Below, one piece after another: positions 3,656 through 60,717 of a stretch of 64,000 nucleotides of DNA. The stretch covers positions 6,283 to 70,282 of the forward strand of contig NZ_JALXBK010000044.1 of NCBI RefSeq assembly GCF_026991475.1, written 5' to 3'. The stretch comes from Sulfurimonas sp. GTDB lineage: Bacteria; Campylobacterota; Campylobacteria; Campylobacterales; Sulfurimonadaceae. The notes below the pieces were generated by a model. It worked only from the letters and a program-made list of their open reading frames with translations, was not told the DNA's origin and did no database searches. Positions within the stretch are counted from its first letter, which is position 1; each line of letters starts with the position of its first letter. A program made the position numbers and the translations under genes.

Positions 3656-4012
3656 TTAATTAGATTTTTCTACAATTTCTCTACAATCAATACAGTAAAT
3701 TGCATGAGGTTTTACCTTTAATCTCTGAAAACCTATATCATCTTCACACATTTCACAAACACCATATCCACCATTAACAATTTTCAATAGTGCTTTTTTA
3801 ATCTCTTTTAACTCTTGCGTTTGTTGTTCATAAATAGCACTTTCAACCATTGAATTGTTATTTACAGATGCATGATCACCCTCATCTTTTAAATCTAAGT
3901 TACTTAACTCGTTCAACTCAACATTTACACTACTCAGATTAGTCTCTATCTGTTTTTTACGACTCTCTAAAATTTCTTTAAAATAATTTAACTCACTTGC
4001 TTGCACGTACAC
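3656..4012 (-). CDS. dksA: RNA polymerase-binding protein DksA
   Basis: Coiled coil with DEGDHA tip and C4 zinc finger (CEMC...CIDC). Confidence 0.93.
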   Translation of the reverse strand: MYVQASELNYFKEILESRKKQIETNLSSVNVELNELSNLDLKDEGDHASVNNNSMVESAIYEQQTQELKEIKKALLKIVNGGYGVCEMCEDDIGFQRLKVKPHAIYCIDCREIVEKSN

Positions 4013-55059: not shown

Positions 55060-55373
55060 GCACTTTCCTCTTTTTTTATATAAACCCCAAGCCAGACAAC
55101 GACTTTTTTTGTTTTTAACAAAGTATGCTTTGTATTTGCAGGGATGAAGATAGAATCACCTGCTTTTAATTTGTGTACTATACCATCAATTTGTAGTTTT
55201 GCACAACCCTTTAAGACAACTACCCACTCATCTTTATCTTTTTGTAAAAATTCTTGTGGTGTTTTTAGAGTATTACTTACTATGCGTTTTATTACTACAT
55301 TTTTTTTGCTTAAAAGTGTTGTGAAATTTTCATCATCAACTAAAGGCAGCTCAAAATCAAAAAGATTAGCCAT
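55056..55373 (-). CDS. cupin domain protein
   Basis: EWVVVLKG...GDSIFIPANTKH cupin motifs; likely start 55373. Confidence 0.8.
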   Translation of the reverse strand: MANLFDFELPLVDDENFTTLLSKKNVVIKRIVSNTLKTPQEFLQKDKDEWVVVLKGCAKLQIDGIVHKLKAGDSIFIPANTKHTLLKTKKVVVWLGVYIKKEESA

Positions 55374-56331
55374 AGTTAATCTCCCAATGCCCTTTTCTTG
55401 CACTTCCTACTCTTTTAATTTTATTCTCTTTTTTCAAGTTTACTATCTGTTTTTCAATGGCTCTTGTAGTCAAATCTAGAAGCTCTGCTAACTCTCTTAT
55501 GGTAATTTTTGGATTTTCTTCTAAATAAATTAAAATTTTATCCTCTGTATTTACCGAACTTTTTACCGAACTTTTTACCGAACTTTGAATAGTCTCTAAA
55601 ATCACTTCTAACATAAATTCTATAAAAGGTGTGCTTTCACCTAAACTTCCAGACTCTTCTAAAGCTCTATAGTATCTCTCTTGATTATCTCTTATAATAC
55701 TTTCGGTAGGAATAGCACTAAAAACTTTTCGCCATTGATGTAAAATTACTGATTGCCAAAGTCGTCCAATTCTACCATTTCCATCAGAAAATGGATGAAT
55801 AAACTCAAACTCATAATGAAATACGCAAGATTTGATAAGCATATGTTCATCACTTGTTTTTAACCACTCAAATAGATTTTGCATTAATTGGGCTACAACA
55901 CCAAAAGGTGGAGCGACATGGCTTACCCCATCACTACTACCAACTCCTACATTAACACCTCTAAAACTTCCAGCACTATTTAAAATACCTTTCATCAAAT
56001 AGTTATGGGCTTTTAACAAATCATCAAGATTATCATAGCTATAATTTTCAAATGCTTTATAGGCTTCTATAGCACCCTCAACCTCAAGTACCTCTTGATA
56101 ACTACCCAAAACTCTCTTTCCATCTAAAATTGCAGTAATCTTCTCTTCTCCCAAAAAATTACCCTCTATCTCTAAAGTACCGACAAGAGTCTTAATACGA
56201 TTTTTTTTTCGAAGCTGTGGAGTAATGATTTTGTCAGATTTATACTCTAATCTAGTAAGTTCTTCACCTATTTTAGTTGCTAAAGACAACATTTTAGAAG
56301 TGATTGTATAGGGAGGTTTATAATTACTCAT
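55366..56331 (-). CDS. Fic family protein with C-terminal HTH
   Basis: Canonical HPFSDGNGRIGR motif; TIRELAELL...AIEKQI HTH. Confidence 0.92.
   Translation of the reverse strand: MSNYKPPYTITSKMLSLATKIGEELTRLEYKSDKIITPQLRKKNRIKTLVGTLEIEGNFLGEEKITAILDGKRVLGSYQEVLEVEGAIEAYKAFENYSYDNLDDLLKAHNYLMKGILNSAGSFRGVNVGVGSSDGVSHVAPPFGVVAQLMQNLFEWLKTSDEHMLIKSCVFHYEFEFIHPFSDGNGRIGRLWQSVILHQWRKVFSAIPTESIIRDNQERYYRALEESGSLGESTPFIEFMLEVILETIQSSVKSSVKSSVNTEDKILIYLEENPKITIRELAELLDLTTRAIEKQIVNLKKENKIKRVGSARKGHWEINYG
55551..55586. repeat. 12-bp tandem repeat x3 in the Fic linker
   Basis: (TTACCGAACTTT)3, encoding SSVK-SSVK-SSVN. Confidence 0.9.
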
Positions 56332-59216
56332 GAAATATTACTCTCCTTACCCTCTACAATCTTCACTTCATCCTCATTTAATCCATAAAGCTTATAAACC
56401 AAGCTATCAATCTCTTTAATACTATCATCTACCAAATGCTCTAGCTTCTCAATCTCCTCTTTTATCTCTATCTTATCGACTGCGTTTAGGCTCTCAAAGT
56501 GTTTGTTGTATTTTGCTATTTTCTCTTTTGATTCTATGATGGTGTCTACTACATTTATAAATGGTTCTTGTTTCTCTTTTGGTATTTTTGGGATTGGTAA
56601 TTTTCCAACACCATTAGGAAAATATTCAAAACTTCCTCCACCCGTTTGTTTTCCAATACTTTTATATCTAAAATTCAAAACTTTAGAATTTAAAAGTGCC
56701 AATAAATATTTTAAATCAAAATTAGCATTTGTATCAAAAATGATTGTCATATTTGAAAATGCTAAATACTCATTTTTACAATCTAGTACAAAAGTATTTT
56801 CAAATGCTCTTCTACTGCAAAATATTTTATTATACTTATAAAGTTCCTTATGCATTGGGCGGCTATATCTCCACCATATTCTACCTTCATTTTTAACAGT
56901 TGCTCTATTTTCTAAAAACTCTTTATTTTCAAGCAAATGATTTTGTATTGAACTTGGCAAATCTTCAAAGTTTTCTATGTCTTCAAAATATAAAATATAT
57001 GTTTCTTTACCCTCTATAAAATATCTTTTTATATTTTTACCCGTCACTCTTGGCTTTATAAATTCTTTTGGAAATTGATTTGGATACTCTTTAAATAAAA
57101 ATACTTTATCTGCCGCAGTTTCCATTCCTTTACCAATTTTAAAGATACTATTTAGCTTTGAATGGGAACTATCTATTTTTTCATTTATAGCACTTATTTT
57201 TTTCTCTACTAATGAAAAAACCATATCTTTTTTTAAACTTACTTCAAAATAGTTTTTTATATCAGAGATGATTTCATTAATTTCACTTACTTCATAATTT
57301 TTTTCTTTAAAGTTATAAGCCAAACATTCACTATCTTTTTTATTTTTATCAAATTCTATAATAGCAGAAGTTATTGAAGCATCTTGAAAAACCATATATT
57401 TTTCAAAATTTAAAATTTTTGAAATAGGTGCATTGTCTAATATATAGTTTCTTAGTTTTACAGCTTTTGCAAAGTGTAAAAAAGCATTTGAAGTTATAAA
57501 GCCCACTTTACTTTTTGTTATTTCTATGGCTTTTGCTACAAAATAAAAAAGTATATCGCTTTTATCTTGCCAAATATTCGGAAATCTATTTTGTATCTCT
57601 TTTGCTAATTCTGATTTAGCCCCTAAAGTTTGAATATTAAAATACGGTGGATTCCCTATCACAACATCAAAACCACCATTAGCCATTATTTCAGGAAAAA
57701 GCTCATTCCAGTCAGCAGTAAGTGAGTTTGCACTTTTAATGTTGCCCATAAGATTTGAAAGTGGTCTGTCCCTTTTTGCAGTTTGTAGCCATAAAGAGAG
57801 TTTTGCTATGCCAACACTTGCACCATTTATATCTACTCCAAAAAGATTTTTTTCTATGATTTGCTTATCTATATCGTGATGTTCAAAGAGTCCTGCATCT
57901 GCTAATTGTAGCTCTCTTTGTATCCATTTATGCTCATCTAAAAGATATCTAAAAGAAGCAGTTAAAAACGCACCACTTCCACACGCTGGATCAACTATTT
58001 TTAGGCTCTCAAGATACTCTCTATATTTGTGCAGATTCTCGCGCCTCATCTGTTTTGCTTTTTTACCCTCTTTTGTTGCATCAAAAAGTTTTAACTCCTC
58101 TTTTTTCACATCGCAGAGTTTTGCGACAGTATTGTTTATGATGTAGTGCGTAACAAACTGAGGCGTGTAAAAGACACCATCTTTTTTTCTAGTATCTACT
58201 ACCTTGTGTTCTTCAAAGAGAGACTCTTTAATCTTCTCCAAATCATTTAATGATTGTTCAAATATATGCCCTAAAACCTCTACATCTACATCATCACTAA
58301 AATCATAAGCACTTAAATGAGATAAATCATCTTTAATTATATAGTCATCTATTATGAGATTTTCTAGCAATTCATCAGGCTTAAAAAGATTTCCATTATA
58401 TCTAGGAATATTTACTTTAGCATTTCCCACATCTATAAAATGAAAATACTTTTTGTAGTAATTATAAAGAGGAGTATCATCTCCCCACTCCTGAGAACTC
58501 TCATACTGTTTTATAACAGCATCAATGCTATTTGCAGGGATCAGCCCTCTATCTTCAGCAAAGAGTATAAACATAAATCTATCAAGCAGTTTGTTTGCCG
58601 ACTCAAATATACTCTCTTTTGATAGCTCTTTATTGTTATCAATAAGATTATTTAAAAGTTTTAATCTAAAATTACTATACTCTTTATAGACCTCTTTGGT
58701 TATCTCTTCTTGTGATTTTGAGAGTTTTTTGAGTCTTGCTATTTCGCTGGATTCTAAGGATGGTTGTGAGAGAAGTGCATAGAGTATGGTGTAGCTCTCG
58801 TTTTTTGTCATATCTAAAGAGAAGCAGACATCACTACTTTCACTATAAATGTCAAGCTGTTTAAAGTTTGAAATGATGACATATTTACAAGTTGGTTTTT
58901 CGTTTTTATAACGAAATGCTTGCGCTATGATGTCACGATTTGATATTTTTTTATCACTACTTTTTAGCTCTATGATTGCTATTGGCTTGCTATTTTTATC
59001 ATAAACCACACCATCAGCTTTTTTCATATCTGTAGTGTTTTTCACCTCTCTTACACAGTTACTCCATTGAAGCATCTTTGCAAGCAGAGCAATAAACTCA
59101 GCACCATTTGCATCTTCAGCTATAAATTTATTTTTTGTAACAAGTTTAATGATGTCGTTACTATCTGGAGCATTGAAAGATTTTACAAAATTTTTAAGGA
59201 GTGATTTTTGAAACAT
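56328..59216 (-). CDS. type IIG restriction-modification enzyme (Eco57I-like fused REase-m6A MTase-TRD)
   Basis: N-terminal ADG...IELK PD-(D/E)XK motif, GVFYTP, DPACGSGAFL, GNPPY and a TaqI_C-like TRD. Confidence 0.88.
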   Translation of the reverse strand: MFQKSLLKNFVKSFNAPDSNDIIKLVTKNKFIAEDANGAEFIALLAKMLQWSNCVREVKNTTDMKKADGVVYDKNSKPIAIIELKSSDKKISNRDIIAQAFRYKNEKPTCKYVIISNFKQLDIYSESSDVCFSLDMTKNESYTILYALLSQPSLESSEIARLKKLSKSQEEITKEVYKEYSNFRLKLLNNLIDNNKELSKESIFESANKLLDRFMFILFAEDRGLIPANSIDAVIKQYESSQEWGDDTPLYNYYKKYFHFIDVGNAKVNIPRYNGNLFKPDELLENLIIDDYIIKDDLSHLSAYDFSDDVDVEVLGHIFEQSLNDLEKIKESLFEEHKVVDTRKKDGVFYTPQFVTHYIINNTVAKLCDVKKEELKLFDATKEGKKAKQMRRENLHKYREYLESLKIVDPACGSGAFLTASFRYLLDEHKWIQRELQLADAGLFEHHDIDKQIIEKNLFGVDINGASVGIAKLSLWLQTAKRDRPLSNLMGNIKSANSLTADWNELFPEIMANGGFDVVIGNPPYFNIQTLGAKSELAKEIQNRFPNIWQDKSDILFYFVAKAIEITKSKVGFITSNAFLHFAKAVKLRNYILDNAPISKILNFEKYMVFQDASITSAIIEFDKNKKDSECLAYNFKEKNYEVSEINEIISDIKNYFEVSLKKDMVFSLVEKKISAINEKIDSSHSKLNSIFKIGKGMETAADKVFLFKEYPNQFPKEFIKPRVTGKNIKRYFIEGKETYILYFEDIENFEDLPSSIQNHLLENKEFLENRATVKNEGRIWWRYSRPMHKELYKYNKIFCSRRAFENTFVLDCKNEYLAFSNMTIIFDTNANFDLKYLLALLNSKVLNFRYKSIGKQTGGGSFEYFPNGVGKLPIPKIPKEKQEPFINVVDTIIESKEKIAKYNKHFESLNAVDKIEIKEEIEKLEHLVDDSIKEIDSLVYKLYGLNEDEVKIVEGKESNIS

Positions 59217-59293
59217 ATATGAACCTCTGATTTATTAGTATGATTTTACCTAAAATCAGGTTTAAAGTTTATTTATGTTGCCAAAAGAAAAGT

Positions 59294-59590
59294 TTATGCA
59301 GCAACTTGCAAATGAGCAGAAGATATTTTTTCCACATCGCTTAAAAGCTTAAAACTAAGCCTAGAATAGCCTTCAAGTTTTTGGTTCTTATATATGTTAT
59401 AGTAGCTATCTATAATTCTATCAATATTGTAAAGTCTATCAGATTGTTCAGCCGTTAAACACTCTCTATTTTCTTCTAATGCTTTTCTATCATCAAGTAT
59501 TTCAAAAAAAGTCTCATCATGAAAAAAAGCTTCAAGATCAAAATTCTCTAAGTTTTTCTGTAATCTGTTTAATTGTTTGTCTAAATTCAT
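59294..59590 (-). CDS. small acidic hypothetical protein, putative immunity/antitoxin
   Basis: 98 aa; overlaps the upstream ORF by 53 nt. Confidence 0.6.
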   Translation of the reverse strand: MNLDKQLNRLQKNLENFDLEAFFHDETFFEILDDRKALEENRECLTAEQSDRLYNIDRIIDSYYNIYKNQKLEGYSRLSFKLLSDVEKISSAHLQVAA

Positions 59591-59999
59591 TGCTAACCTC
59601 CACCCTGTTTACTTTTGCACCTAATTGTTCTTTATGCTTACTCAATGTATCCACAATTGTACTATCAATTTTATATGAAGTCAATATTTTGCCATTTTGT
59701 GCGACAATAACAGCCCAATTGTCTTCTTTTGTATAAAAAACCCTATCCCATAAATCAGCTGCTTCATAGAGTTCAAAAAATGTTTCGTCACTACTAAGAG
59801 CATTAAATGTTTTTTGTAAATAGTCATGCTCATCAATAACTATTTCTTCAATATTCATTCTTTTATTCAGGTGTTTTCTGTAGTCTTTAATGGTATACCA
59901 TAACATTGCAAAAGAAGATATTGCAGATTGTTTGCTTGTAGCATCAAAATTTTCTAAATGAATTAAAAAATTATTTTCAACTTTCTTATACTTTTCCAT
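59538..59999 (-). CDS. hypothetical protein, putative BECR-fold RNase toxin
   Basis: Likely start ATG 59999 (153 aa); YRKHLNKR...RVFY...WAVIV..NGKILTSYK pattern. Confidence 0.5.
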   Translation of the reverse strand: MEKYKKVENNFLIHLENFDATSKQSAISSFAMLWYTIKDYRKHLNKRMNIEEIVIDEHDYLQKTFNALSSDETFFELYEAADLWDRVFYTKEDNWAVIVAQNGKILTSYKIDSTIVDTLSKHKEQLGAKVNRVEVSNEFRQTIKQITEKLREF

Positions 60000-60015
60000 C
60001 ACCAAAATATACCCA

Positions 60016-60717
60016 TTAAACTTCAATCCGTAAACTAACTTCATACATAAACTGCTGCAGAGGCAACATATCTTCATATATTTCAAAAAGAGTTGTAATG
60101 AGAGCTTTACCATCTTCTATAAGATGTGGGTCTAAAAGCTTATATGTTGCCATACCTTTATAGAGAGATAAGTCTGCGTTTGGCATATCTTTGTCAAAAC
60201 CTTTTGGGTAGCGTTTATAGCCTTTTTCAAGATGTGTATAATTTTTTCCCATCCCTTTGATTTTGTTCAAAATATCTGCAAGTTCTTGCCGCTTTGCATC
60301 ATCTTTTATATATTCACGAAAAGCATCAAGCATAGGTTTTTCAAACCATCTCACACCAACTGCAACATAAAGTTCCTCTGGGGAGAAATGCATATAAAAA
60401 GAGGAGCTTTGCATCCTTTTGCCAGATCCTTGCCAAAATATTACACCAATACGGTGTTTAATTGGCTCTTTATTTGCACCCATTCTACGGGTATCTCTGT
60501 AAATTCTATAGAGTGATTTGTTTATTTTTGGTTCTGCGTTTATGGTGGGCTCTAGTGCTTGAAGATGTTCACCCATCTCTACGACAAAAGCGCGAGATGG
60601 GTTGAGAATAAGGTTTTCATACTCACTTTTATGAGCTTCAAACCATACTTTGTTGTTGTTTTTACGAATAGAGTCTAAAAAAGGTAAAACTTTTGGTGAA
60701 AAACCACTAAACTCCAT
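60016..60717 (-). CDS. DUF2461 family protein
   Basis: FSGF...FL..I..NNNK.WFEAHK..YE and RIYRDTR...KEP.K motifs. Confidence 0.85.
   Translation of the reverse strand: MEFSGFSPKVLPFLDSIRKNNNKVWFEAHKSEYENLILNPSRAFVVEMGEHLQALEPTINAEPKINKSLYRIYRDTRRMGANKEPIKHRIGVIFWQGSGKRMQSSSFYMHFSPEELYVAVGVRWFEKPMLDAFREYIKDDAKRQELADILNKIKGMGKNYTHLEKGYKRYPKGFDKDMPNADLSLYKGMATYKLLDPHLIEDGKALITTLFEIYEDMLPLQQFMYEVSLRIEV

Follow-up and report, generated by a model that had tools for sequence, protein, structure and literature searches.

The overlapping gene pair described here (open reading frames, ORFs, A and B), located in a stretch of 64,000 nucleotides (nt) of Sulfurimonas sp. DNA (contig NZ_JALXBK010000044.1, positions 6,283 to 70,282; hereafter the window), is probably a toxin-antidote cassette that was derived from a phage. 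A is reasoned to be an RNase toxin tip of the barnase/EndoU/colicin D/RelE (BECR) type which originates from a phage MuF protein, and B is reasoned to be its cognate inhibitor, the two persisting as a selfish or protective cassette that heads a defence islet. Toxicity of A, an RNA substrate, direct binding between A and B and a role in phage defence are what we infer within this reading, which takes its toxin-immunity part from three findings: decay of A with retention of B in one lineage, a natural fusion of both proteins and their co-divergence.

Searching A and B against Pfam, NCBIfam, PADLOC and PHROGs gave zero family matches, and nothing was found when the PDB was searched by sequence with close and broad profiles. 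The affiliation of A is documented by a 494-amino-acid (aa) protein of a metagenomic phage, the last 150 aa of which are 57% identical to A (3e-62) and which has a head morphogenesis domain of the MuF type at its N-terminus (phrog_1657, 2e-28; Pfam Phage_Mu_F, 1e-3). This protein is encoded among portal (phrog_145), scaffold and major head (phrog_247) genes, and directly behind its gene a B homologue (P0028) follows with a 53-nt overlap as in the window. A profile search for A across 1.8 billion representative proteins yielded 88 relatives (clusters at 50% identity), in all of which the A-type domain is C-terminal, with no more than 6 residues following it. The long members (370-790 aa) carry Phage_Mu_F (nine members match, the best at 2.4e-24), whereby the MuF domain resides on the same polypeptide in P0029, P0033, P0035, P0047, NRS1_33 of phage NrS-1 and others. 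In the cultured Nitratiruptor phages NrS-1, NrS-2 and NrS-3 the A-type domain ends a protein annotated as 'phage head morphogenesis protein' (NRS1_33 in NrS-1), and an 84-aa hypothetical ORF overlaps the end of the NRS1_33 gene by 62 nt. In nine of nine loci, fused or free, a small ORF of 84-103 aa overlaps the A-type gene at its end, by 41-62 nt; two of three distant downstream ORFs match the B profile weakly (5e-7 and 2.5e-5), the NrS-1 ORF being marginal (0.078). The original prediction had compared A with the BECR-like nucleases found on phage MuF toxins, and its homologues are actual MuF C-terminal domains. The window copy itself is free-standing, no MuF N-terminus being detectable anywhere in the genome by tblastn, and a location in a phage packaging or head module was seen for loci L009/L010 and NrS-1 and not for the window. 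The A family is distributed patchily, occurring in 6 of 201 genomes of the bacterial family; among GTDB representative genomes, relatives were found only in two Sulfurimonas metagenome-assembled genomes, no close relatives were found among IMG/VR viral contigs, and a Foldseek search of a viral library returned uncharacterised proteins only. Two proteins retrieved with the A profile are peculiar. P0049, a MuF-toxin protein of 790 aa, appears to contain an insert of ~330 aa within its MuF domain which begins with CYSEDTEVL, ends with ...HN/C and looks like an intein, while P0061 (1060 aa, highly repetitive) matched the A profile in 18 stretches, all covering profile positions 7-59 only, and was left out of the alignments as an apparent low-complexity or repeat artefact.

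How the free-standing form arose can be read at the junction in front of A. The free-standing cassettes retain up to 25 in-frame MuF-linker codons (KYPI.KY...GYNxxM) upstream of the A start codon, and because of these retained codons the cassettes are, as judged from their sequence, truncated 3' ends of MuF-toxin genes. The GYN codons at the junction of MuF part and toxin read GGGTATAAT in relatives; of nine loci, fused or free, eight keep the arrangement GGGTATAAT-N6-ATG, and the window copy has GGGTATATT in its place. Here the junction (60000-60011) contains a -10-like TATATT 6 nt before the ATG of A. As a separate observation, GGGTATAAT is a -10 hexamer without any mismatch, 6 nt in front of the toxin-domain methionine, for example at L001:7980-8003 and in L053 (NrS-1) at ~3950-3970. 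The junction hexamer might drive a leaderless transcript which comprises the toxin tip and the immunity gene, even inside full-length MuF genes.

Both reading frames are conserved. Homologue clusters were obtained for A (n=11, 58-100% identity) and B (n=15, 60-97%), and the pairwise ratios of nonsynonymous to synonymous substitution rates (dN/dS) are well below 1 (0.08-0.45 for A and 0.04-0.22 for B), from which it follows, on the grounds of coding conservation, that A and B are real genes which are both under purifying selection. The overlap encodes the tail of A (...KQITEKLREF, followed by the stop codon) and the start of B, MNLDKQLNRLQKNLENFD; its length is kept among close homologues and ranges from 41 to 62 nt in distant pairs. 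ORF B (isoelectric point 4.85, net charge -6.3) has a strong Shine-Dalgarno sequence of its own, while ORF A has no usable one in the window, an arrangement which fits low translation of the toxin and high translation of the antidote. The description of the locus in the original prediction, i.e., two co-oriented ORFs overlapping by 53 nt and lying 77 nt upstream of a type IIG restriction-modification (R-M) gene, was accurate in every detail, the gap being that between the stop of B (59294) and the start of the R-M gene (59216). Given the 53-nt overlap and the existence of a 247-aa fused form, it was considered that one or both ORFs might be spurious, or that a single A-B product is made through programmed +1 frameshifting. 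This is hardly credible, as conservation extends to both frames (dN/dS well below 1), B has a GGAGG of its own 6 nt in front of its ATG, fusing the frames takes a 1-nt deletion which destroys this very GGAGG, and the C-terminal helix of A is conserved and modelled with high confidence. Scanning the region for promoters and terminators gave site counts that were not above those of shuffled sequence. A promoter-like TTGACT-17-TACAAT (10 of 12 matches) lies inside A at 59656-59684 on the minus strand, ~65 nt upstream of the B ATG; it might provide B with a transcript of its own, such sites being no commoner than in shuffles.

The AlphaFold2 model of A, calculated from an 11-sequence alignment, is of high confidence, with a predicted local distance difference test score (pLDDT) of 94.2 and a predicted template modelling score (pTM) of 0.89. 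It comprises helices 3-15, 23-31, 37-50 and 57-68, strands 72-78, 83-90, 95-99 and 105-110, and a C-terminal part consisting of helix 115-126, strand 128-132 and helix 137-151. Across 69 diverse members, H43, R47, Y60, W95, G103 and T107 are near-invariant, whereby H43, R47 and T107 are conserved to at least 90%; the first two locate to helix 37-50 and T107 to strand 105-110. BECR and PBECR RNases were described as carrying a His on their N-terminal helix as well as a serine or threonine in strand 4, and such domains as being fused to MuF, in the section of Iyer et al. that deals with them (PMC5512222, section 19). In the model, the residue layout of A equals this published BECR/PBECR or colicin D-type configuration. 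The segments that had been highlighted in the original prediction are found at the expected places, as KHLNKR carries the near-invariant His43 and Arg47, and RVFY, WAVIV and ILTSYK of the proposed RVFY/WAVIV/GKILTSYK meander coincide with predicted strands 2-4. Considering topology and active-site layout of the model to be BECR-like, membership of A in the superfamily is plausible.

For B, the AlphaFold2 model is all-helical and of low confidence, and no detectable similarity to solved chains, ImmD included, was found. Its relation to A is approached through the evolution of the pair. In one Sulfurimonas lineage (at least 10 contigs; L005-7, L056), A is 5'-truncated and interrupted by frameshifts and stop codons, and B is intact. 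Elsewhere, A and B form a natural fusion which arose by a 1-nt deletion in the GGAGG site of B, whereby the frames were joined, the Shine-Dalgarno sequence was destroyed and the C-terminal helix of A was lost; the 744-nt fusion gene is identical on contigs of two different metagenomes and may be read as a Rosetta-stone hint at physical interaction of A and B. The fusion, 247 aa long, was located at L076:1356-2099 and L077:109-852, its neighbours being small unknown ORFs and an Mrr_cat nuclease. Across pairs, A and B diverge in parallel. Considering the decayed A next to intact B, the fusion and this co-divergence, together with the conserved overlapping ORF, the toxin-immunity relation proposed in the original prediction was supported indirectly. 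All 16 B proteins end in alanine (12 in -AA, three in -VA, one in -TA), and in distant B-like ORFs the last residues are -AA or -VA. In the window, B ends in ...LQVAA (59294-59299), similar to the end of the host ssrA tag: the tag of the host transfer-messenger RNA, identified with aragorn as ANNTNYRPALAVA, matches that of Sulfurimonas autotrophica and ends in -ALAVA. The alanine-ending C-terminus could be a degron and suggests that B may be a protease-labile antidote.

Several findings weigh against the assignment of A as a BECR-type toxin with B as its inhibitor. Foldseek against the PDB gave no significant match for A (best E 0.35), and the colicin D tRNase entries 1tfk, 1tfo, 1v74 and 5znm, which make up four of the top 12 matches, are weak (E 0.35-0.7, probability 0.2-0.57, template modelling score 0.32-0.47). 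The Pfam hidden Markov models PBECR1 (PF18809), PBECR2 (PF18810), PBECR3 (PF18812) and MuF_C (PF18819) miss A; in the window genome, PBECR2 gave no match at E<=1e-3, PBECR1 and PBECR3 none at E<=1e-6 and MuF_C none at E<=10. Comparison of A by hhalign with alignments of PBECR1-3 built from Campylobacterota genomes gave probabilities of 1-3%, a test of low power given that PBECR1-3 reach only 0.2-23% among each other. The weak alignments are in register, placing the His helix of A on that of PBECR3 and 'GKIiTSY' on 'WIITAY' of PBECR1. No similarity was found between A and the C-terminal domain of Mu gp30. When the natural fusion was modelled as a stand-in for the complex, confidence was low (pLDDT 66.8, pTM 0.52). 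In addition, Jamet et al. (PMC5576092), in the passages concerned, regard uncharacterised MuF C-terminal extensions as not proven to be toxins, and the C-terminal domain of Mu gp30 is, in the corresponding section of Iyer et al. (PMC5512222), regarded as catalytically inactive and as a possibly RNA-binding PBECR domain. Taken for the BECR fold as originally predicted, topology and residue layout match, while the structural matches are weak and membership in a named family was not found. PBECR1, PBECR2 and PBECR3 as such are common in Campylobacterota (48 of 201, 54 of 301 and 30 of 201 genomes, respectively), often with several domains per genome and within giant ORFs of up to 3743 aa.

The cited views on MuF extensions and Mu gp30 lend themselves to an alternative in which A is a non-toxic MuF accessory domain, involved in RNA or DNA binding or in head assembly like the inactive MuF-C of Mu gp30, B is its assembly partner or chaperone, and the chromosomal copies are functionless prophage remnants. 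That no occurrence of the domain is known outside MuF proteins and derivatives of these, and that the free-standing copies are visibly truncated MuF 3' ends, would agree with this. Nevertheless it was judged unlikely, since intact A and B are under purifying selection in at least six non-phage contexts, the window genome has no MuF gene, and the His/Arg/Thr set is near-invariant rather than degraded; a dead A next to a retained B is, moreover, what is expected of a toxin and its antidote and not of assembly partners.

The genomic contexts of the pair bear on its function as well. In the window, A and B are the first genes of an islet which is missing from six other genomes of the genus, one of them with a DUF2461 gene that is 97% identical. 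These six congeners have the order CcsBA-DUF2461-cupin-HemH-HAD, cupin being undetected by tblastn in two of them; the DUF2461 stop abuts the cupin ATG, and in the two cupin-less genomes it lies 12-17 nt before hemH. As the gene order of the congeners is uninterrupted, the islet was identified as an insertion, which lies between housekeeping genes, is devoid of any recombinase and ends with a Fic gene whose stop codon overlaps the cupin start. An imperfect direct repeat at the islet ends was considered and dropped, being better explained by the conserved GYN-linker codons. Queried against PADLOC-DB 2.0, A and B each match zero families at E<=1, while their neighbours match REase_MTase_IIG and SoFic. 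Elsewhere, A and B were found in a type II-C CRISPR locus with the order cas9-fic-cas1-cas2-array-A-B (L001:1362-8706, JALUKS010000157.1), B with a decayed A was found in a second Sulfurimonas lineage 95 nt upstream of a type IIG enzyme unrelated in sequence, together with RhuM, and further copies lie near an Mrr-type nuclease, beside insertion sequence transposases or among housekeeping genes. In the L001 locus the array has 14 repeats with a 66-nt spacing, A-B starting ~80 nt past the last, degenerate repeat, and the Fic protein encoded between cas9 and cas1 (261 aa) is only distantly related to that of the window, with one 36-aa motif block in common. No recognised defence gene is present in three of seven chromosomal contexts. 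The cassette hence tends toward accessory or defence regions, and the association with defence genes expected from the original prediction holds for the R-M, CRISPR and Mrr neighbours and not for the insertion sequence or housekeeping ones.

A specific tie to the R-M enzyme had been proposed as well, according to which A-B would be an abortive-infection module serving as a second line behind the type IIG enzyme, functionally coupled to it and inherited with it. The arrival of A-B, R-M and Fic as one 4.6-kb insertion in a single orientation, the lack of a terminator between B and the R-M gene, the second type IIG enzyme downstream of B and the copies that flank the CRISPR array or lie near the Mrr-type nuclease are in line with this idea. 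Evidence against it comes from a 95%-identical sister strain, in which ~2.2 kb of the R-M gene are deleted with a 230-aa N-terminal stump remaining and A, B and Fic are intact. In this strain, which is known from a metagenome (L075:1143-2791), the DUF2461-A-B junction is the same as in the window. As, in addition, neither A nor B has a PADLOC match, three of the seven contexts are without a recognised defence gene, and the dead toxin of the second R-M-linked lineage renders the proposed abortive-infection effector dispensable there, functional coupling to the R-M enzyme is regarded as decidedly improbable and this part of the original prediction was not supported.

Alternatively, the selected function might be that of B, which would provide anti-effector immunity against a MuF-borne toxin injected by infecting Sulfurimonas or Nitratiruptor phages, and such a defence would be directed at a protein that the virion delivers. 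This would explain the clustering with R-M, CRISPR, Fic and Mrr genes, the outliving of A by B and the ssrA-like -AA end of B; it is considered a possible though rather unlikely explanation. For the toxin-antidote cassette favoured here, the following course of events is suggested. A would act as a putative RNase using His43, together with Lys42, Lys46 and Arg47 on the helix and Thr107/Ser108 on strand 4. B, which is small, acidic and predicted to be helical and is made from its own strong ribosome-binding site within A, would most likely bind and block A. In the phage version, the MuF-fused toxin would travel inside the head and be delivered along with the DNA, whereby the downstream gene would shield the lysogen. 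In the chromosome, the cassette would probably work as a module of the addiction or abortive-infection type, guard against incoming phage toxins that belong to the same family, or do both.

The original prediction had further pointed to two peptide motifs which are shared by A and B, and this was borne out: LENFD occupies residues 15-19 of A and 14-18 of B, DETFFE residues 71-76 of A and 25-30 of B, with 51 residues between the motifs in A and 6 in B. When B was shuffled 200,000 times with its composition preserved, p was 0.0135 for sharing a 5-mer, 0.0008 for sharing a 6-mer and 8e-5 for sharing two separate stretches of at least five residues; the coincidence is unusual for one pair, yet it was picked from a very large scan. 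LENFD is not conserved in A homologues, where LKNFD, LDKLD, LESLD and IDSFK are found instead, and DETFFE is limited to the closest clade of the A family, more distant members having KEV(F/Y)FE or SDVYYE. Comparing the A and B family profiles by hhalign gave a probability of 12%, and in shuffle tests the window pair reached p=0.014 and four of five other pairs were non-significant, the fifth (NrS-1) giving p=0.02 but in a different alignment register. According to the AlphaFold2 models, DETFFE forms strand 1 in A, whereas in B, the model of which is of low confidence, it lies at the start of a predicted helix. Homology of A and B, as implied by MAFFT, which repeatedly placed A residues 42-153 onto B, did not hold up in view of hhalign, the shuffles and this mismatch of strand and helix. 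Within B, LENFD is positioned over the A stop codon inside the dual-coding stretch, which may be part of the reason for its invariance there. The shared motifs are therefore, as far as sequence comparison goes, read as a coincidence emerging from a very large scan, and the mimicry or ancient duplication that had been envisaged for them was not supported.

Table 1. Coordinates of the A-B cassette, its candidate functional sites and the surrounding islet within the window.
Feature	Position	Strand	Description
ORF A	59538-59999	minus	153 aa, isoelectric point 5.84; free-standing MuF-C-terminal, BECR-like putative RNase toxin domain
ORF B	59294-59590	minus	98 aa, acidic, predicted all-helical; putative cognate immunity protein/antitoxin
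A/B dual-coding overlap	59538-59590	minus	53 nt; B frame is +1 relative to A
GGAGG Shine-Dalgarno sequence of B	59597-59601	minus	6 nt 5' of the B ATG, within the A coding sequence
Candidate active site, helix part	codons around 59876-59859	minus	K42-H43...K46-R47; conservation and AlphaFold2 model
Candidate active site, strand part	59681-59673	minus	T107-S108-Y109; conservation and AlphaFold2 model
Left islet junction	60000-60034	minus	DUF2461 stop and 16 nt from MuF-linker 'GYN' codons
Inserted islet A-B-RM-Fic	55374-60015	minus	4.6 kb; comparison with six congeners
Type IIG R-M enzyme	56328-59216	minus	962 aa; Pfam Eco57I, MmeI, TaqI_C; PADLOC REase_MTase_IIG 9e-134
Fic and winged-helix (wHTH) protein	55366-56331	minus	SoFic-like, last islet gene; PADLOC SoFic 4e-43

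Among described systems, the MuF polymorphic toxins of temperate phages, which come with an immunity ORF downstream (Jamet et al. 2017, PMC5576092; Zhang et al. 2012, PMC3482391, in the parts dealing with them), are among the closest. In the packaging modules of phages, homologues of A make up the variable C-terminal domain of MuF proteins, and the A family shows the corresponding arrangement, in which this domain has at least 100 aa and a small ORF (<150 aa) comes after it. Unlike these, the window copy has neither a MuF part nor a surrounding prophage, the catalogue of MuF toxin domains does not include its domain (no match in Pfam or NCBIfam), and the described cases are mostly from Firmicutes, whereas the A family comes from deep-sea Campylobacterota. 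With the PBECR and MuF-C domains, as presented in the relevant section of PMC5512222, the A family shares the occurrence of MuF-fused and solo versions, and A shares the core of a helix and four strands with a helix histidine and a strand-4 Thr/Ser; A differs in having extra N-terminal helices (residues 3-31) and a C-terminal strand and helix. Descriptions of PBECR domains usually mention no dedicated immunity gene, whereas A has B. The colicin D tRNase with ImmD is the best recurring structural match of A, weak as noted above, and A and B are similar in layout to its catalytic His on an N-terminal helix beside lysines and its small acidic immunity protein; colicin D has no sequence similarity to A, and B has no detectable likeness to ImmD. 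Finally, the orphan CdiA-CT/CdiI and Rhs-CT/RhsI modules (Poole et al. 2011, as referred to in PMC5576092) are, like A-B, promoter-poor pairs of a 5'-truncated toxin tip and its immunity gene in which a piece of the parental junction is kept, namely VENN in CdiA and the 'KYPI.KY..GYNxxM' linker in A-B. As far as that account goes, A-B differs in that the parent delivery system is a phage head protein and not a secretion system, and in that the cassettes are scattered in the chromosome rather than arrayed behind a full-length gene. The pair had been called undescribed, which is correct for the families, as they are without a Pfam, NCBIfam or PADLOC model or a solved relative, and not for the kind of system, which is known.

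The finding changes no general concept. With it, the repertoire of MuF polymorphic toxins gains a toxin domain (~88 clusters at 50% identity) and an immunity family, both uncatalogued, for a group, the deep-sea vent Campylobacterota and their phages such as NrS-1, whose toxin biology is almost unstudied. Phage-fused copies, free intact pairs, an A-B fusion and a dead toxin with a live immunity gene together form a natural comparative series with which the toxin-immunity hypothesis can be tested at little cost. Should A be an RNase, the BECR catalogue would be extended by its target and by its His/Arg/Thr site. The finding also illustrates how toxin tips of phage structural proteins turn into accessory cassettes of the chromosome near defence genes.

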